A stretch of 64,000 nt of DNA from Akkermansia sp. (GTDB lineage: Bacteria; Verrucomicrobiota; Verrucomicrobiia; Verrucomicrobiales; Akkermansiaceae). Made by a program: the position numbers and the translations under genes. Numbering within the stretch: the stretch's first letter is position 1; the number at the start of each line of letters is the position of its first letter. Location of the stretch: assembly GCA_045538105.1 (NCBI GenBank), contig JAZSQS010000035.1:4059-68058 (forward strand), given 5' to 3'. This document shows positions 15,622 to 61,135 of the stretch, one piece after another. The notes beneath the pieces are model-generated. The model was not told the DNA's origin, searched no databases, and saw only the letters and a list, made by a program, of their open reading frames with translations.

Positions 15622-15695
15622 TTGCGGGAGCAGGATTTGAACCTGCGGCCTTCAGGTTATGAGCCTGACGAGCTACCTGGCTGCTCCATCCCGCG
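15622..15695 (-). tRNA. initiator tRNA-fMet (anticodon CAT)
   Basis: 74-nt cloverleaf CGCGGGA-TG-GAGC-AGCCAGGTA-GCTC-G-TCAGG-CTCATAA-CCTGA-AGGCC-GCAGG-TTCAAAT-CCTGC-TCCCGCA-A. C1xA72 mismatch typical of bacterial initiators and near-identity to E. coli tRNA-fMet from memory. No encoded CCA. Confidence 0.9.
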
Positions 15696-24737: not shown

Positions 24738-26177
24738 ATGAACCACAATCTCACCACGGCTGCCGGCATTCCGGTACCCGATAACAACCGCTCACTCACC
24801 GCGGGGCCTCGTGGTCCCATGCTCATGCAGGACACATGGCTCTTCGAAAAGCTCAGCCACCTGAACCGCGAAGTCATTCCGGAGCGCCGCATGCACGCCA
24901 AGGGCTTCGGAGCATTCGGCGTATTCCGCGTCACAAATGATATCACGCGCTACACCTGTGCCGATTTGTTCTCCTCCATTGGCAAGGAAACAGAGGTCTT
25001 TGTGCGCTTCTCCACGGTGGCGGGTGAGCGCGGAGCCGCAGATGCAGAGCGCGATATCCGCGGCTTTGCCGTCAAGTTCTACACCCACCAGGGAAACTGG
25101 GACCTGGTAGGCAACAACACGCCCGTCTTCTTCCTGCGGGACCCGCGCAAATTTGCCGACCTGAACCACGCCATCAAGCGCCACCCCGCCAGCGGACTGC
25201 ACAGCCCCTCTGCCAACTGGGATTTCTGGACCTCCCTGCCTGAAGCCTTCCACCAGGTCACCATCGTGATGAGCGACCGCGGCATCCCGGATGGTTTCCG
25301 GCATATGCACGGATTCGGCAGTCACACCTTCTCGCTCATCAACGCCCGGAACGAGCGCATCTGGTGCAAGTTCCACTGGCGCTGCCAACAGGGCATCCGC
25401 AACCTGACCGATGCCCAGGCTGCCGCACTCATTGCCGCAGACCGTGACAGCTCCGGTTCCGACCTCTACCGAGCCATTGAGCAAGGGCGATTCCCGAAAT
25501 GGACGCTCTGCATCCAGGTCATGACCGACGCAGAGGCCGCCGATTTCCCCTTCAACCCCTTTGATTTGACCAAGGTGTGGCCGCATGGGGATTTTCCGCT
25601 CATCGAGGTGGGTGAAATGGTGCTCAACCGCAATCCGCAAAACTATTTTGCAGAAGTGGAGCAAGCCGCCTTCAACCCCGCGCAGGTGGTGCCGGGTATC
25701 AGCTTCTCCCCGGATAAGATGCTGCAAGGCCGCCTCTTTGCCTATGGGGATGCACAGCGTTACCGCCTGGGGGTGAACCACCACCTCATTCCGGTAAACC
25801 GCCCCCGCTGCCCCTTCCACAGCTTCCACCGCGATGGGCAGATGCGTACAGATGGCAACCTGGGTGGCACCCTCAGCTACGAGCCCAATAGTTACCACGA
25901 ATGGCAGGAACAGCCCCAGTTCACCGAACCTCCCCAGCATATCTGCGGAGACTCCGGCCACTGGGACTATGCCAATGATGATGATGACTACTTCGCCCAG
26001 CCCCGTGCCCTGTTCCTGCTCATGAATGCAGCGCAGCGCCAGGCGCTCTTTGAGAACACCGCACGCGCCATGGCCGACGTGCCGGAGTTCATCCGCCAGC
26101 GTCATCTGGAGCACTGCTTCCGCTGCCATAAGGATTATGGCGAGGGTGTGGCAGCGGCTTTCGCCGCAACGTCCTGA
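24738..26177 (+). CDS. katA: monofunctional haem catalase (small-subunit type)
   Basis: [18 protein letters not shown] (distal His region), [14 protein letters not shown] (proximal Tyr region), 479 aa. Confidence 0.95.
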
Positions 26178-26431
26178 CCGCAGGTCAGGATATCGTCTGC
26201 CCCGCCAGGGGCAGATATCGTCCAATCCGCAGGATTGGATATCGTCCAGCCCCAACGGGGCTGGATTTCGTTTCCGATTTGCAAGGGAGTATTATTTCCC
26301 AAGGATTGGGAGAATATTTGCTATTGATTCACAGGAAACGATATCCAGCCTCCTGCGGAGGCTGGACGATATCCGGCTTGCGCCGGACGATATCTTGCCT
26401 GCGGCAAGACGATATCCTCGCTTCGCTCGGA
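26173..26431. repeat. hairpin-array inverted-repeat element, gene-less copy
   Basis: Left arm has four GC-rich hairpins each followed by ATATCGT (26190, 26215, 26239; ATTTCGT at 26265). A 62-nt core follows. Right arm has ACGATAT (26338, 26366, 26387, 26409) each followed by a hairpin. It fills the whole katA-ispG intergenic space. Confidence 0.85.
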
Positions 26432-26432
26432 C

Positions 26433-28175
26433 TTAAGGCTCAACCCAACGGCCGTGGTCCTTGATAAGCTGCACGAGGTGCTGCACAGCTTCCTCCTGCG
26501 GAATGTTCATGACCACGGGGGTGTGCCCCACATAGAGGTTAATCTTGTTCGGAGCGCCACCTACATAGCCGAAATCGGCATCGCTCATTTCGCCGGGACC
26601 GTTCACGATGCAGCCCATGATGGCAATCTTCACGCCTTTGAGGTGTCCGGTGGCCTCGCGGATGCGGGCAGCAGCTTCCTGGATATTGTAGTGCGTGCGG
26701 CCACAGGACGGGCAGGAAACATACTCAGTCTTGCTCAGGCGCACGCCAGCAGCCTGCAGGATATTGAAGCCCAGGCGGGCAGCCTTGTCGGGGGCGGTCT
26801 CGCGGCGCACAAGCACAGCGTTGCCAATGCCGTCGCAGAGCAGCGAACCGGCATTCACACCGCCGGCCATGGGGGCAGAAAGGGAATCCAGCCCGTTGCA
26901 GAGCGTATCCTTGAGCAGAATGCTGTGGCGGGTCGGAATGACGGCAGCCAGCAGACGGAAGGCCTGCACCACCGGCATGTCGATACCATCCTTCACCGTG
27001 ACCAGCGTTGCGGGAGCCTCGGCCAGGGCAGCAGTGGCGGCGGCATCGCGCGGGTCAAGCTCCACCGGAGCGCAATCCTCATACGAGATTTCCGGCATGA
27101 AATCCTTCATAACCGCAGGGTCAAGCGCCTTGCAGGCAGCTTCCGGCAGCACCACGCGCACCGGCTCATTCCAGCCCAGGCTCACACCGCCGCGGGTGAC
27201 AACCTCGGCCTTGCGCTTGTTGAATTCAAAGGGATTAAAGGCATCCGGCACCTCCACGGCCAGCGGAGCAGCGGGCAGCACCGCACCGGGCTGGTAGGGA
27301 GCAGCCAGTTCAAAACCGGGGGCTATCTCAAACACCGGGTCCTCGGTCAGGGAGACGCGCAGGGTATCGCCAATACCATCGGCCAGCAGGGAGCCCACGC
27401 CGGTGGCGCTCTTGATGCGGGCATCCTCGCCCTCGCCGGCCTCGGTCACACCCAGGTGGATGGGGTAGTTCCAGTCGAGCCCCTCCTCGGCCAGGCGCTT
27501 CACCAGCAGGCGGTAGGCCTGAATCATCACCTTCACATTGGAAGACTTCATGGAGAACACCAGCTGGTGGTAATCCAGCTCGCGGGCAATGCGGGCAAAC
27601 TCAAGCGCACTTTCCACCATGCCATCAGGCGTATCGCCATAGCGGTTCAGAATGCGGTCGGAAAGCGAGCCATGATTAGCTCCCAGGCGCATGGCGCGAC
27701 CATGTTCCTTGCAGAACAGCACCAGCGGCGTAAAGGCCTTACGGATTTTCTCAATTTCCTCTTCGTACTCATAGTCTGTGTAGTCTCGCTCCACAAACTT
27801 CTTCTTATCCACAAAGTTACCGGGATTCACGCGGATTTTCTCCACCCACTTGGCAGCCTCCATGGCAGCATCCGGCTTGAAATGAATATCTGCCACCAAC
27901 GGCACATTGCACCCGGCAGCGTGCAGCTCGCGGGCTATATTTTCCAGGTTAGCGGCATACACCTTGGTCTGCGCGGTCAGGCGGATGATTTCACAACCAG
28001 CCTCGGCCAGCGCCAGCGATTCGCGCACACACCCGGCTGTATCCAGCGTATCGCTGGTCAGCATGGACTGAATACGGATGGGATTGTTACCACCAATCCC
28101 CACGTTTCCCACCATCACCTCGCGGGTGAGGCGGCGCGTATACTGGTACAGACTCGGGCAATGAAGCGTGCTCAT
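26433..28175 (-). CDS. ispG: 4-hydroxy-3-methylbut-2-enyl diphosphate synthase, long form with insert domain
   Basis: N-terminal TIM-barrel segment (VGNVGIGGNNPIRIQSM), C-terminal 4Fe-4S segment (CPSCGRT, GCIVNGPGE), and 580 aa with a central insertion. Confidence 0.92.
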   Translation of the reverse strand: MSTLHCPSLYQYTRRLTREVMVGNVGIGGNNPIRIQSMLTSDTLDTAGCVRESLALAEAGCEIIRLTAQTKVYAANLENIARELHAAGCNVPLVADIHFKPDAAMEAAKWVEKIRVNPGNFVDKKKFVERDYTDYEYEEEIEKIRKAFTPLVLFCKEHGRAMRLGANHGSLSDRILNRYGDTPDGMVESALEFARIARELDYHQLVFSMKSSNVKVMIQAYRLLVKRLAEEGLDWNYPIHLGVTEAGEGEDARIKSATGVGSLLADGIGDTLRVSLTEDPVFEIAPGFELAAPYQPGAVLPAAPLAVEVPDAFNPFEFNKRKAEVVTRGGVSLGWNEPVRVVLPEAACKALDPAVMKDFMPEISYEDCAPVELDPRDAAATAALAEAPATLVTVKDGIDMPVVQAFRLLAAVIPTRHSILLKDTLCNGLDSLSAPMAGGVNAGSLLCDGIGNAVLVRRETAPDKAARLGFNILQAAGVRLSKTEYVSCPSCGRTHYNIQEAAARIREATGHLKGVKIAIMGCIVNGPGEMSDADFGYVGGAPNKINLYVGHTPVVMNIPQEEAVQHLVQLIKDHGRWVEP

Positions 28176-56702: not shown

Positions 56703-56775
56703 TACCCCCGCGCGGACTCGAACCGCGGACAAATTGATTAAGAGTCAACTGCTCTACCAACTGAGCTACGGAGGC
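56703..56775 (-). tRNA. tRNA-Lys (anticodon CTT), copy 1
   Basis: 73-nt cloverleaf GCCTCCG-TA-GCTC-AGTTGGTA-GAGC-A-GTTGA-CTCTTAA-TCAAT-TTGTC-CGCGG-TTCGAGT-CCGCG-CGGGGGT-A. The acceptor stem has G1-U72 and U4-G69 wobbles. Confidence 0.85.
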
Positions 56776-56804
56776 ATTTGCTCACCCGGCTGCTCACAGA
56801 CTGG

Positions 56805-56877
56805 TACCCCCGCGCGGACTCGAACCGCGGACAAATTGATTAAGAGTCAACTGCTCTACCAACTGAGCTACGGAGGC
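56805..56877 (-). tRNA. tRNA-Lys (anticodon CTT), copy 2
   Basis: Identical 73-nt sequence, 29 nt from copy 1. Confidence 0.85.
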
Positions 56878-56923
56878 ACTTTGTCTGTGAGCACCCTGCA
56901 CCCTGTGTTTCTCTTAGGGGAGA

Positions 56924-56995
56924 AGCCGCTGGTCAGATTTGAACTGACGACCCACGCATTACGAATGCGTTGCTCTACCCCTGAGCTACAGCGGC
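56924..56995 (-). tRNA. tRNA-Thr (anticodon CGT)
   Basis: 72-nt cloverleaf GCCGCTG-TA-GCTC-AGGGGTA-GAGC-A-ACGCA-TTCGTAA-TGCGT-GGGTC-GTCAG-TTCAAAT-CTGAC-CAGCGGC-T. Confidence 0.9.
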
Positions 56996-57129
56996 GGATG
57001 CTGTGTGCGGCGGCAGCATATCACAGCAATCTCGTCATTGCAAGCCTTTTTTTAGAAAAAAGTTTCATCCCCCTCTTTTTGACTTTACACGCGCGTGAGC
57101 CTTGTGTAAATTCAGTCAGGCAATCTAAC

Positions 57130-58458
57130 ATGTTAGTACACAAGTGCTTCATTCTCCTCCTGGTCTTATGCCTGTTGGTATCCAACATGGCAGAGGGGGC
57201 GCCGCACCCCGTTGACTGGCAACAAGAAGCGCAACTGCTGCAGGCCGATTCCAGTGGGAGCAAGCGGATTCAGCGCATCCGCTACATACTTTCCCTGCGC
57301 TTGCTCGACATGGCAAAGGGCGGGCATATCAACAAGCAGGACAAATACGGCCAGACTCCCCTCATGCTGGCCGCCGCCATCAACCACTCCGGCCTCATAA
57401 CCCGGCTCCTGCTCCATGGGGCAGACCCGCTCATCATGACCCCCAAAGGGAAATGCGCCCATGATTTCTGCACAGATACAGCCCTCTCCATCAGGCTCAT
57501 GCGCTGCTGCATCCCCCGGGACCCCGGTATAAGCTTGCACGAAGCCGTGCTTCTACCAGAAAATGCCACAGATACCGCCATGCAGCTTCTCTGCCTCGGC
57601 GCTGATGCAACCGCAACTGACGCAAAGGGCAGAACCCCGCTCATGCTGGTTCCGCTCAGCAATCCACAGTTAGCTGAAATCCTGATAGCAGCCGGAGCCC
57701 ACCCTGCCCACTGGGGAACAACAGAACGCTCCAAGGTCAAGGTCAGCTTCATTGACGTTGTATTCACCCACACCGGCGCCACTGAAAAGGAACTGGAGGA
57801 GCAAGACATCGCCAATGCAAGGAAACTGGATGAACTAGCCGCAAACAAAGTCAGCTGGCGCCGCTTCCGCGACCGCGCACTCAAGCGCCGGAGCCTGCTC
57901 AACTATCCCTATGGCTACCTGTGGAGCCGCAAACTCCGCCGCCACACCCACAAGAACACACTCTGGAAAGAAGAGTATGAACGCAACCCCGCCTCGCAGG
58001 ATGGCGTAAGCGGCTACCACGGTCCCGTGCACCGGGGAATCCTCACCCTGCACTACCCGGACAACATCCCCCCACTCATCTTCAACGTGCAGGCTGGCGG
58101 GAGGGCGCGCAATTTCCACGGAGAAGGAGACTCCACCGCACCCATTGTGCCTGAAGGCTCTACTGCCAGGCTCTACACTGACCTCATGGGGCATAGCATC
58201 CACGGTTTCTTCATTTCATGCCTGGGGCGCCAGGCCATTCCACAGTTCAGCGAAAGCCGAACTGACATCATGCTCCACCTGGCCACAGTAGCCGTACCTG
58301 GCGAAACAGAGGAAAGCACCGTGCGTCACACCGGCTCCCATGGTTGCATCTCCGTGCTTAACCTCGCAGATTGGGAAATTATTTCCTCAGAACTCCGTAA
58401 AAACGGAGGCGCAGGCCCCAATGGCATTGAAATACGCATCCGCTATGAGAACCATTAG
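57130..58458 (+). CDS. secreted ankyrin-repeat protein with C-terminal YkuD (L,D-transpeptidase-fold)-like domain
   Basis: Track ORF 56734-58458 trimmed to ATG 57130 (MLVHKCFILLLVLCLLVSNMAEG) because the upstream part overlaps three tRNA genes. Ankyrin repeats (YGQTPLMLAAAINHSGLITRLLLHGADP, KGRTPLMLVPLSNPQLAEILIAAGAHP). HTGSHGCISV resembles the YkuD catalytic motif. Confidence 0.7.
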   Translation: MLVHKCFILLLVLCLLVSNMAEGAPHPVDWQQEAQLLQADSSGSKRIQRIRYILSLRLLDMAKGGHINKQDKYGQTPLMLAAAINHSGLITRLLLHGADPLIMTPKGKCAHDFCTDTALSIRLMRCCIPRDPGISLHEAVLLPENATDTAMQLLCLGADATATDAKGRTPLMLVPLSNPQLAEILIAAGAHPAHWGTTERSKVKVSFIDVVFTHTGATEKELEEQDIANARKLDELAANKVSWRRFRDRALKRRSLLNYPYGYLWSRKLRRHTHKNTLWKEEYERNPASQDGVSGYHGPVHRGILTLHYPDNIPPLIFNVQAGGRARNFHGEGDSTAPIVPEGSTARLYTDLMGHSIHGFFISCLGRQAIPQFSESRTDIMLHLATVAVPGETEESTVRHTGSHGCISVLNLADWEIISSELRKNGGAGPNGIEIRIRYENH

Positions 58459-59354: not shown

Positions 59355-60443
59355 ATGCACCTCTACATCCACGTTCCCTTCTGCCACCGCATCTGCCCCT
59401 ACTGTGCCTTTTTCAAGCACACACCGGGCAGCAGTGACATTCGCGGCTACGTGCAAGGCGTTATTAAGGAAGCCCGGCTCCGGCTGCCTGAAGGAAGCAG
59501 CCCGAACACCATTTATTTTGGCGGCGGAACCCCCAGCATGCTCTCCCCCACCCACCTGGAACTCCTTATCACCGGCCTGGGGCAGTGGCTCGACCTCAGC
59601 CATGTGCAGGAATGGAGTTTCGAGAGCAACCCCGCCACCTTTACCGCTGCAAAAGTCCGGCAGTGGCAGCAACTGGGTATCAACCGTGTATCACTCGGCG
59701 TTCAAAGTTTTGATGCAGGCTTGCTGCATCTGCTGGGGCGCGAACACAGCCCGGAAGACGTGGCAGGAAGCATGCAACTCCTGCGGGACGCGGGCATCCC
59801 GCAAATCAACATCGACCTCATGTTCTCCCTGCCCGGGCAAAGTCTGGCACAGTGGGAACACAGCCTCCAGGCTGCCCTGGCGCTGCAACCAGACCATATC
59901 TCCACATACAACCTGACCTACGAGGAAGACACGGCTTTCTTCCAACGCTACGGTGCTACCGCCGGCGATGAAGAAACAGACGTTGCCATGTTCAACCTGG
60001 CAGATGACCTCCTCACTGCTGCTGGCTACCGGCACTATGAAATCTCCAACTACGCCCGCCACGGCTGCGAATCGCTCCACAATCTTGCCTGCTGGCATGG
60101 CGAAGACTACTGCGGACTAGGCCCCGGCGCTGTGGGAACCATGAGCGGCGTCCGCTACTGCAACGCCGGCGATACTGCCGCCTACACGGCCGCCCTGAAA
60201 GCAGGTACCCTGCCACCCGGCACCTCTGAGGAGCTCGACCCTGCCACCCGCCGCACCGAGCTGCTGGGCCTCCTGCTCCGAACCGATGAGGGACTGCCAC
60301 CCGCCATGCTCCGCCCGCAGGATAGTACCTTCATTACCATGCTCCAGCGCGAGCAGCTCGCCACCATTTCCCCCACCGGCCGCCTCATTCTCACCCGCTC
60401 CGGCCGCCTCGTGGCCGATGAAATCGCCGTCGGCCTCATCTGA
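59355..60443 (+). CDS. hemW: radical SAM haem chaperone HemW (HemN-like, oxygen-independent coproporphyrinogen oxidase family)
   Basis: LYIHVPFCHRICPYCAF (CxxxCxxC). 362 aa, without the extra HemN N-terminal elements. Confidence 0.85.
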   Translation: MHLYIHVPFCHRICPYCAFFKHTPGSSDIRGYVQGVIKEARLRLPEGSSPNTIYFGGGTPSMLSPTHLELLITGLGQWLDLSHVQEWSFESNPATFTAAKVRQWQQLGINRVSLGVQSFDAGLLHLLGREHSPEDVAGSMQLLRDAGIPQINIDLMFSLPGQSLAQWEHSLQAALALQPDHISTYNLTYEEDTAFFQRYGATAGDEETDVAMFNLADDLLTAAGYRHYEISNYARHGCESLHNLACWHGEDYCGLGPGAVGTMSGVRYCNAGDTAAYTAALKAGTLPPGTSEELDPATRRTELLGLLLRTDEGLPPAMLRPQDSTFITMLQREQLATISPTGRLILTRSGRLVADEIAVGLI

Positions 60444-60554
60444 CGTCCGCGAGCCCCTGCTCGCGGATATCGTTACTCCCCCGCCTGCGGGGGAGTAATA
60501 TCGTTTTTGTCGACAGGCAAAAATATCGTTCCGGCCGCAGGCCGGAATATCGTT
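60444..60554 (+). repeat. left hairpin-array arm (4 hairpins, each followed by ATATCGT)
   Basis: Hairpins at 60447-60466, 60475-60496, 60506-60521 and 60531-60545. Linkers at 60467, 60498, 60523 and 60547. Confidence 0.9.
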
Positions 60555-60600
60555 TCCTATCAAGTCTTTCAGAAACGAAAACATATCATTGGGAAATCAT

Positions 60601-60629
60601 TTGCCCTCACATGCGAAAACTGATAGAAT
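60601..60629 (+). promoter_or_regulatory. sigma70-like extended -10 promoter TTGCCC-17-(TGa)TAGAAT (leaderless configuration)
   Basis: -35 at 60601-60606 and -10 at 60624-60629 with TG at 60621-60622, 8 nt to ATG 60638. Confidence 0.45.
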
Positions 60630-60637
60630 GCCCAATC

Positions 60638-60979
60638 ATGAAACCGCATCCTTTAGCTGAGCAAAGTCTGGATTTTTCCGTTAATATAGTTCACTTTTGC
60701 GATGGTATTGAACGTTACGCTGTCCTGAAAAATCAATTACTCCGCTCTGCCACCAGCATTGGAGCCAACATTCACGAAGGCATTTATGCAAGCAGCGGTG
60801 GAGATTTTGTAGCGAGATACCAGATTTCGCTAAAGGAATGCCATGAGACTGAATATTGGCTCAAAATCATGGAACGAGCCGGACTTGCACAGCCTGAACA
60901 AATCAGGCAGCTCCTTCAACAATGTGGAAAAATTCGCCGCATGCTGATTGCGTCCATCACCACGGTTAAAGCAGGCTGA
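60638..60979 (+). CDS. four-helix-bundle protein (23S rRNA intervening-sequence protein / Avd family)
   Basis: LLRSATSIGANIHEGIYASSGGDFVARYQISLKECHETEYWLKIM matches the family pattern as I remember it (RSxxSIxxNIxEG ... DFxxxLxIAxGSxxE). ~113 aa. AT-richer than the flanks. Start could instead be 60611. Confidence 0.75.
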   Translation: MKPHPLAEQSLDFSVNIVHFCDGIERYAVLKNQLLRSATSIGANIHEGIYASSGGDFVARYQISLKECHETEYWLKIMERAGLAQPEQIRQLLQQCGKIRRMLIASITTVKAG

Positions 60980-61023
60980 TTTCGTTTCCCAATGCACACT
61001 GATACATATCTGTAAAACAATAT

Positions 61024-61135
61024 AGGAAACGATATTCCGGCCTGTGGCCGGAACGATATTTTTGTCTGTCGCCAAAAACGATATTACTCCCCCGCAGGCG
61101 GGGGAGTAACGATATTCTCGCTCGCGGCGAGAACG
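61024..61135 (-). repeat. right hairpin-array arm (reverse complement of left arm)
   Basis: Linkers ACGATAT at 61029, 61053, 61078 and 61109. Hairpins at 61037-61051, 61061-61076, 61086-61107 (exact reverse complement of 60475-60496) and 61116-61132. Confidence 0.9.

Follow-up and report, generated by a model that had tools for sequence, protein, structure and literature searches.

Intervening sequences (IVSs) in the 23S rRNA genes of Leptospira, Coxiella, Brucella and Xanthomonas carry an open reading frame (ORF) of the PF05635/TIGR02436 family within stem-forming inverted repeats, and their sporadic distribution is suggestive of horizontal transfer. The Xanthomonas family member, S23p, is a homopentameric toroid, and the Coxiella IVS has tandem heptamer repeats ahead of its ORF (PMC4990558). 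The family has many members and is widely distributed, and no function outside diversity-generating retroelements (DGRs) has been assigned to it since its ORFs in IVSs were reported in the early 1990s (PMC4990558). In the cryogenic electron microscopy structure of a Bordetella phage DGR, a pentamer of the related protein Avd grips a stem-loop of 11 bp topped by a tetraloop; each of its five protomers is in contact, and flipped-out bases near the foot of the stem are read in crevices between protomers. Stem-loops of this binding type, often with GNRA loops, occur in 207 of 278 DGRs that have an Avd homolog (10.1101/2023.10.23.563531). Here, we describe a 692-bp element at positions 60444 to 61135 of a 64,000-nucleotide stretch of Akkermansia sp. 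DNA (contig JAZSQS010000035.1, positions 4,059 to 68,058; hereafter, the window), in which a stand-alone gene of this family, IVP, lies between inverted arrays of short hairpins joined by the 7-nt linker ATATCGT.

The element resembles a 23S rRNA IVS in its PF05635/TIGR02436 ORF, in the stem-forming inverted repeats around it, and in a sporadic distribution. Unlike an IVS, which sits in helix 25 or 45 of the rRNA, it lies between protein-coding genes, and no rRNA is present in the window. It also differs in that its arms are modular, that gene-less, solo, and tandem copies are dispersed, and that strong purifying selection acts on the Akkermansia gene, in contrast to the decay of the Coxiella ORF. 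The likeness to Avd, whose pentamer forms a four-helix-bundle barrel described as "similar to S23 ribosomal proteins," would extend to the ligand: Avd binds a 9- to 11-bp stem capped by a tetraloop, often GNRA, and reads adjacent bases, which is the same shape-plus-sequence mode that we propose here. In contrast to the single site of the DGR, the element offers four plus four sites, its loops are mostly G-N-A triloops, and its protein is near neutral. Neither a reverse transcriptase nor a template/variable repeat adjoins the IVP gene, as judged by reading the neighbors within 2 kb rather than by hidden Markov model searches. The best explanation of the sequence annotated initially is that it is one arm of an IVS-like cassette composed of a stand-alone Avd/S23p-family gene and short-hairpin arrays. 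We classify the element as an IVS-like, Avd-family cassette whose new part is the modular hairpin-linker grammar together with the non-autonomous copies; full-text literature searches returned no description of hairpin-linker arrays tied to the PF05635/TIGR02436 family.

Architecture of the element

The region singled out by the initial annotation, positions 60447 to 60554, is the left arm of the element. Each arm consists of four GC-rich hairpins joined by ATATCGT, and the two arms are inverted around a 113-amino-acid gene. They form a 112-nt inverted repeat (right arm, 61029 to 61135, against left arm) with 91% complementarity. The gene, the inverted-arm architecture, and the dispersed, mobile-like nature of the element described below go beyond that annotation, which had likewise recorded a second copy in the window (locus 2, as opposed to locus 1 at 60444 to 61135).

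ATATCGT was counted 22 times in the window, whereas shuffling predicts 2.69 ± 1.44 occurrences and never gave more than 6. As had been reported, 15 of the 16 linkers at the two loci match it exactly, eight at 60467 to 61115 and seven at 26190 to 26415, the sixteenth being ATTTCGT at 26265. The linker-to-linker spacing of 21 to 31 nt was reproduced, and 5 of the 16 loops are indeed GCA on the ATATCGT strand, all closed by C-G. Every segment between linkers, and every outermost segment at both loci, is a hairpin. The paired stem changes pointed out previously are real (CCAGCCCC/GGGGCTGG versus CCAGCCTCC/GGAGGCTGG; CTGCCCC versus CTTGCC). The accompanying statement that nearly all palindromes differ is correct between the loci and incorrect between the two arms of locus 1, which carry the same modules. 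Relative to its shuffles, the left arm folds far more stably, with z = −8.35 as RNA (−74.4 versus −45.9 ± 3.4 kcal/mol) and z = −7.95 as DNA.

Covariation in the stems, constancy of the linkers, and strand asymmetry of the loops

In a pattern scan of one genome per species, the same architecture was found in many metagenome-assembled genomes (MAGs) of Akkermansia, Akkermansiaceae, and Verrucomicrobiales and, unexpectedly, in a few Clostridia as well. For the analysis of covariation, arms were defined by four AT[AT]TCGT linkers alone, with no hairpin filter, which yielded 61 distinct arms. Stem pairing in these arms was 98 to 100%, compared with 27 to 78% with shuffled partners. The five outer pairs of hairpins H2 to H4 provided 897 cells in total: 544 held the commonest pair, 343 held another Watson-Crick pair with both sides changed, 3 were G.T, and 7 were broken. 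The stem covariation anticipated by the initial annotation was thus borne out in the larger copy set. The sequence of the palindromes, by comparison, is not conserved (115 unique modules, 57 distinct stems).

Linkers behave in the opposite way to stems. In 77 arms, ATATCGT was counted 225 times, ATTTCGT 49 times, and other forms 3 times, with exactly four linkers in 58 of the arms; in a 52-arm alignment, the invariant columns are the linker columns. The expected conservation of the linker is therefore evident, at near invariance in six of seven positions, and because the synonymous sites of the enclosed gene are saturated, the linker has been fixed over a divergence that randomizes neutral sites. 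Each module comprises a free-sequence stem of 4 to 10 bp, a C-G-closed loop of the form G-N-A or G-N-N-A, and 3 to 5 nt of unpaired linker flanked by conserved closing pairs (A-TATCG-T in the window element). The loops distinguish the strands. On the ATATCGT strand, Akkermansia triloops are G-N-A in 40 cases versus T-N-C in 8, tetraloops are G-N-N-A in 15 cases versus T-N-N-C in none, and tandem G.A oppositions are present only on this strand in CCGAGC-GNA-GCGAGG, the commonest of the outermost hairpins.

Wobble pairs are not enriched: in addition to the 3 G.T pairs among 897 cells, single mismatches comprised 23 G.T versus 29 A.C. Quasi-palindrome template switching is a self-templated correction of DNA palindromes. 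Because wobble is not enriched, the covariation could stem from correction of this kind at the DNA level instead of selection on an RNA fold, in which case part of it would be of mechanical and not selective origin; selection is required for the loop rule and the linker even under self-templated correction. Of the earlier suggestion that a single strand is read for structure plus sequence, the loop asymmetry supports the single-strand component, whereas selection on an RNA fold finds no support in the wobble counts.

Repetition of a short constant motif among free-sequence stem-loops is also seen in the sponge RNAs CsrB and RsmZ, in which many such stem-loops offer a constant GGA motif to a multimeric protein. 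In CsrB and RsmZ, which are dedicated small RNAs, GGA is placed within the loops, whereas here the motif lies between hairpins and the arrays are dispersed and inverted. The likening of the pattern to an inverse clustered regularly interspaced short palindromic repeat (CRISPR) array is a figure of speech only. CRISPR arrays consist of direct repeats of 23 to 50 nt with unique spacers of similar length and are usually near cas genes; here, only 7 nt are constant, the units that vary are self-complementary, the arrays form inverted pairs of four, and no cas genes are adjacent.

The IVP gene and its linkage to the arrays in two phyla

The IVP protein matches PF05635 at 79.4 bits (cut-off, 33.8) and TIGR02436 at 94.1 bits (cut-off, 24). 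Its closest solved structures are PDB 2RLD (E = 1e-18) and, found with a profile, 2GSC, with five chains per entry; bAvd was not retrieved from PDB by sequence alone. The ratio of nonsynonymous to synonymous substitution rates (dN/dS) is 0.02 to 0.10, with synonymous sites saturated between most pairs, and we conclude from this ratio that the protein is functional and under strong purifying selection. The window protein has a net charge of +2, and the median isoelectric point over 80 relatives is 7.7. PADLOC and PHROGs left the protein unmatched, and identical database records were found neither for it (with either of two start choices) nor for the neighboring HemW, whose closest record is 87% identical. 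One Akkermansia MAG has a distantly related IVP gene (31% identical) inside a near-perfect inverted repeat of ~100 nt that is composed of two longer hairpins without a linker array (L005, 700 to 1400; L numbers designate retrieved loci). The rule that an IVP gene lies inside inverted repeats may be wider than the ATATCGT-array family.

In Akkermansia, all 10 genes of the window IVP clade sit between two arms. The protein-guided locus search used a six-sequence alignment, a nine-sequence one being too diverse, and the relatives at 46 to 58% identity were almost exclusively from gut Clostridia. A hairpin array ends no more than 300 nt upstream of the start codon at 43 of 75 Clostridial IVP loci, and array density at Clostridial IVP loci is 41 per 100 kb, compared with 2.5 per 100 kb across 1.8 Mb of unrelated loci used as a control. 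The Clostridial layout runs from a tRNA gene with its terminator through an antisense arm, a sense arm, and an extended −10 box to the gene, and of 68 loci, 56 have the proximal arm in sense orientation and 58 have the distal arm in antisense orientation. Since these arms stand back to back, the earlier observation that C(GNA)G loops occupy the inward-reading strand holds for Akkermansia and fails for Clostridia.

The asymmetry itself and the C(GNA)G closing rule recur independently in Clostridia. On the ATTTC strand, triloops are G-N-A in 80 cases versus T-N-C in 2, and tetraloops are G-N-N-A in 51 versus T-N-N-C in 3, with GNRA in 34 of 75. G..A loops are closed by 5′-C...G-3′ in 125 of 133 cases and by G-C in none, while the next pair inward is symmetric. 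Loop strand asymmetry and the C-G closing rule in two phyla together argue that a folded single strand is read.

Linker type follows the protein tree. ATTTCA (53 loci), ATTCA (10 loci), and ATATCG/ATTTCG (8 loci) are each found in clades of their own, the ATATCG/ATTTCG clades consisting of three Clostridial loci plus Akkermansia. The Clostridial ATATCG clade also shares with Akkermansia the tandem-G.A hairpin CGAGC-GNA-GCGAG. A second Akkermansia IVP clade (51% identical; L437, 450 to 1700) has TTTCAC arrays upstream and GTGAAA arrays downstream of the gene. The sequence-specific reader postulated earlier consequently has a candidate in the element's own Avd/S23p-family protein, whose clades the linker tracks; its role as reader would follow by analogy with Avd.

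Two further observations concern the Clostridial loci. Many of the cassettes directly follow a tRNA gene and an A/T-flanked terminator hairpin (L373 to L427, ~560 to 700), and the differing tRNA 3′ ends between these loci hint at repeated insertion beside tRNA genes. At L431 (280 to 900), the intact gene is preceded by about four tandem units, each of which runs from the proximal arm through the ribosome-binding site and ~12 codons into IVP.

Might the arrays be read as ordinary double-stranded DNA, with the linkers as subterminal or operator repeats and the palindromes maintained by template-switch repair? The scarcity of intermediates (3 G.T and 7 broken among 897 cells) and the similar numbers of G.T and A.C mismatches are what self-templated correction predicts, and the Clostridial arrays lie just upstream of the gene's promoter. 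However, the G..A loop rule with its free middle base and the closing by C-G on one strand, both found in two phyla, are properties of a folded strand, as is the conserved tandem-G.A hairpin, and linkers spaced 21 to 31 nt apart would be poorly phased on the helix. We consider an exclusively double-stranded site quite improbable.

A gene-less copy and the pairing of the arms

Locus 2 (26170 to 26432) is a gene-less derivative, because its 66-nt core has no ORF and contains the central hairpin. It fills the entire gap between the convergent catalase and ispG genes: the catalase stop codon lies within the first hairpin, and the IspG stop codon (26433 to 26435) adjoins the last. On its sense strand, the outermost right hairpin reads CCGAGC-GAA-GCGAGG, with tandem G.A. 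The module order of its right arm equals that of arms at a different genomic site (L015 and L049). The two arms of locus 2, like those of L325, differ in their modules, and each module is still a perfect local palindrome.

These diverged arms bear on the possibility that the functional structure is a long arm-arm duplex in a read-through transcript, cleaved by RNase III as in 23S IVSs, with the local hairpins incidental. The complementarity of the locus 1 arms favors such a duplex, as does the fold of the whole element, in which they pair end to end (−333 kcal/mol, z = −18.7), and IVSs carrying a gene of the same family are excised by RNase III (PMC4990558). However, arms that carry different modules and yet retain perfect local palindromes indicate that the feature preserved is local pairing. 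Solo and tandem arms lack a counterpart with which to pair, the two Clostridial arms are located on the same side of the gene, and the duplex accounts for neither the loop strand asymmetry nor the C-G closing. An RNase III substrate as the primary function is accordingly given little probability.

Dispersal and insertion sites

Arms occur in four arrangements: gene-bearing inverted pairs, gene-less inverted pairs, solo arms, and head-to-tail tandems. A single MAG may have copies on several contigs. At the site downstream of hemW in 80 Akkermansia species, we found an empty site, a solo arm, tandem arms, or a full cassette (three species), and at one orthologous site the copies differ in how many modules they have. 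From this presence/absence pattern and the module order that locus 2 shares with L015 and L049, we conclude that the hairpin-array family is dispersed and acts like mobile DNA. At one orthologous site between convergent genes (L015, L049, L342, L346, L352, L356, and L368), located between ORFs ending in ...AMCV and ...DDKEGKTI, the stems differ between species and are still paired; the segment with the IVP gene is inverted in some species there, which suggests recombination between arms.

The outer end of an arm consists of the last three linker bases (CGT or AGT) followed by H1. No target-site duplication was detected at any two-arm copy examined. The inverted flanks TAA...TTA are the stop codons of the neighboring genes, and they vary among TAA, TGA, and TAG at one orthologous site. 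No transposase was found in or adjoining any element read, and no transposase-bearing related insertion sequence was present among the loci retrieved.

Two classes of repeats invite comparison. Repetitive extragenic palindromic (REP) sequences, bacterial interspersed mosaic elements (BIMEs), and REPINs with their REP-associated tyrosine transposase (RAYT) are clustered extragenic palindromes, often located after genes, with a conserved single-stranded motif beside the hairpin. The element is similar in its many clustered short palindromes and in a small gene flanked by inverted repeat copies. It differs in that the flanked gene, at the elements read, is PF05635 and not a Y1/HUH transposase, that the stems are free, and that modules within an arm are direct rather than alternating; the linker is conserved, yet its motif is not the REP one and flanks each hairpin on both sides. 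Miniature inverted-repeat transposable elements (MITEs), such as the Correia/NEMIS and IS630-derived families, are short, non-coding, and present in many intergenic copies with inverted ends. The element shares with them inverted ends, multiple intergenic copies, and presence/absence between relatives, and departs from them in lacking a target-site duplication, in the differing arms of some single copies, and in the abundance of solo arms.

Selfish DNA of the REP/BIME or MITE kind, mobilized by a transposase from another locus (such as an HUH/Y1 enzyme that would recognize single-stranded DNA hairpins and cut the linker between ATAT and CGT) and carrying the IVP gene as a mere passenger, would account for the many copies per genome at unrelated sites, the solo, tandem, and paired arms, the occupied and empty hemW sites, and the variable module number. 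It would also agree with arm ends that begin with the last three linker bases, as if cut at that position, with the DNA-type C(GNA)G mini-hairpin loops, and with the absence of a wobble excess. We nevertheless regard it as unlikely. Besides the lack of target-site duplications and of a transposase in or beside the elements read, the stems are not conserved, unlike those of REPs recognized by RAYTs, and a passenger would not keep its linkage to the arrays across two phyla with the linker following protein clades.

Approximately 19 independent arm ends adjoin a stop codon that terminates a long ORF directed into the arm, often where two genes converge, and about a dozen arm ends face no gene end. 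The former group, the very stable stems, and a proposal that hairpin clusters downstream of stop codons act as intrinsic terminators (PMC8355165) would fit host-selected 3′-end elements, that is, terminators independent of a U tract or barriers to 3′ exonucleases. In contrast, the dozen ends without a gene end do not fit, and a symmetric two-arm element places about half of its ends at a 3′ end by chance. The Clostridial arm beside the tRNA gene is antisense and stands behind a canonical terminator. Given this antisense arm and the chance expectation, we rejected as a general rule that arms are 3′ untranslated structures always sense to the upstream gene. Selection on 3′ ends would also leave the invariant linker, the linked gene, and the clade-specific linkers unexplained, and we hold it to be very unlikely. 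A terminator scan flagged two locus 1 hairpins, H2 and H4, for the sole reason that the module after each begins with TTTT; C-type modules, found at locus 2 and in most copies, have no T run.

The coordinates of both loci are compiled in Table 1. Locus 1 is bordered on the left by the stop codon of the radical-SAM HemW-like gene, whose position is unchanged in species with an empty site, and on the right by the promoter of a Sel1-repeat gene; genes within 2 kb encode glucosamine-6-P isomerase, radical-SAM, and Sel1-repeat proteins. The inner segment TYCCYAWT...ATTGGGAA is conserved at the inner end of most arms. Rfam yielded no match at gathering thresholds for the whole window, nor at E ≤ 1 for the element.

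Table 1. Features of locus 1 and locus 2 in the window
Feature	Position	Strand	Description
Stop codon (TGA) of radical-SAM HemW-like gene (59355-60443)	60441-60443	+	Element begins at the next base
Locus 1 left arm	60444-60553	+	Opens with CGT, then H1 to H4 with a linker after each
Left arm H1	60447-60466		Loop CCCT; linker 60467-60473
Left arm H2	60474-60497		Loop CCTG; linker 60498-60504
Left arm H3	60505-60522		Loop GACA, one T.G; linker 60523-60529
Left arm H4	60530-60546		Loop GCA; linker 60547-60553
Left inner segment	60554-60595	+	TTCCTAT-N26-ATTGGGAA; imperfect larger hairpin
Promoter-like sequence	60601-60629	+	TTGCCC-17 nt-TAGAAT with TG extension, 8 nt upstream of ATG; consensus match only
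IVP gene	60638-60979	+	113 amino acids; four-helix-bundle (23S rRNA IVS protein/S23p/Avd-like); PF05635, TIGR02436
Right inner segment	60979-61028	-	ATTTCGT, then TTCCCAAT-N27-ATAGGAA; mirror of 60554-60595
Locus 1 right arm	61029-61135	sense strand = minus	Linkers (ACGATAT on plus strand) at 61029, 61053, 61078, 61109
Right arm H4′	61036-61052
Right arm H3′	61060-61077
Right arm H2′	61085-61108
Right arm H1′	61116-61132		Terminal ACG 61133-61135
Locus 2 left arm	26170-26271	+	CGT start; linkers 26190, 26215, 26239, variant ATTTCGT 26265
Locus 2 left H1	26173-26189		Loop GCA; catalase stop TGA 26175-26177 inside
Locus 2 left H2	26197-26214		Loop GCCA
Locus 2 left H3	26222-26238		Loop GCA
Locus 2 left H4	26246-26264		Loop AAC
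Locus 2 core	26272-26337		66 nt, no ORF; central hairpin TTCCCAA-GG-ATTGGGA
Locus 2 right arm	26338-26432	-	Linkers 26338, 26366, 26387, 26409
Locus 2 right H4′	26345-26365
Locus 2 right H3′	26373-26386
Locus 2 right H2′	26394-26408
Locus 2 right H1′	26416-26430

Several other observations were made at or near the loci retrieved. Downstream of hemW in other Akkermansia species, L124 (5090 to 5420) has arrays with ATTTCGA linkers, and L135 (5090 to 5420), L136, and L143 (5090 to 5560) have ATTTCAT/AATTCAT linkers, as an inverted pair in L143; GTGAAA arrays stand beside ATATCGT-type arms at the same site in L120, L121, L123, and L131. The post-hemW site seems to be a hot spot for several such array families. 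Also at this site, the IVP gene of L142 (5266 to 5610) stops after ~29 codons and its similarity resumes in another frame, with the arms intact. A short repeat, GGGACTAAAGTCCCGTGCCCC, occurs beside arms and elsewhere in Akkermansia contigs (L069, flipped, 720 to 1310; L333, 5160 to 5260; L138, ~5300). No hairpin arrays were present among the 120 viral stretches listed, and nothing hints at a phage link.

Most non-Verrucomicrobial matches to the DNA pattern were coding sequence or simple tandem repeats without hairpins and were rejected; hairpin-free tandem repeats containing GGATATCGTCC in unrelated phyla (L344, 7760 to 7860; L345, 1730 to 1900; L353, 3940 to 4350) are ordinary and unrelated. 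Within the window, a 72% match of 58370 to 58401 to the inner segment lies in a coding ORF and was taken as chance. The window has three tandem tRNA genes within 56703 to 56995 and one more at 15622 to 15695 on the minus strand. The listed start of a long ORF (56734 to 58458) is not real, because this ORF begins inside the tRNA cluster.

Discussion

We propose that a hairpin and its linker constitute a predicted binding site for the element's own pentameric protein, on a folded single strand and in the manner of Avd, an assignment by analogy to which we would give about an even chance. In this model, the IVP pentamer would read one folded strand, recognizing shape (the stem and a loop with a sheared G.A pair) together with the linker bases, and several rings could load onto the four sites of an arm. 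The gene-less pairs and the solo and tandem arms would then be non-autonomous, supplied with protein in trans.

As to the nucleic acid, we place folded DNA, either single-stranded or extruded, slightly ahead of RNA as the probable ligand. The predominant C(GNA)G triloops, the lack of a wobble excess, and the DNA-level rearrangements speak for DNA, as does the position of the Clostridial arrays behind a terminator and upstream of a promoter. RNA is favored by the Avd precedent, the GNRA loops, and the RNA-level biology of IVSs.

Several points weigh against the proposed protein-ligand pairing. The co-variation of linker and protein could be explained by physical linkage and common descent alone. 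IVP-type proteins are not basic, unlike the "positively-charged" Avd barrel. L142 retains intact arms around a frameshifted gene, and gene-less arrays exist whose protein partner in the same genome is hypothetical. An RNA ligand is at odds with the unenriched wobble and with Clostridial arrays that lie between the tRNA terminator and the gene's extended −10 box, and a DNA ligand with the fact that the family's only structural precedent is RNA. What binding achieves is left unexplained by the proposal.

More broadly, and only tentatively, stand-alone Avd/S23p pentamers and their arrays may represent an unrecognized class of self-propagating protein-nucleic acid modules with autonomous copies (gene plus arms) and MITE-like copies (arms only), in which the short linker would serve as an address specific to each clade and the C(GNA)G hairpin, free in sequence, as a handle. 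The 23S rRNA IVSs would be copies of such modules that had landed in hairpin loops of the rRNA. The cassette is in any case a plausible free-living relative of rRNA intervening sequences. Its arrays add to Akkermansia and gut Clostridia a repeat family absent from Rfam; they abut stop codons and probably break assemblies. For the PF05635 family, the fixed pairing of one clade with C(GNA)G arrays and clade-specific linkers provides a prediction of ligand and specificity that can be tested at the bench. If the shape-plus-linker code is true, these cassettes would constitute a naturally diversified set of orthogonal pairs, each of a small protein and a nucleic acid.

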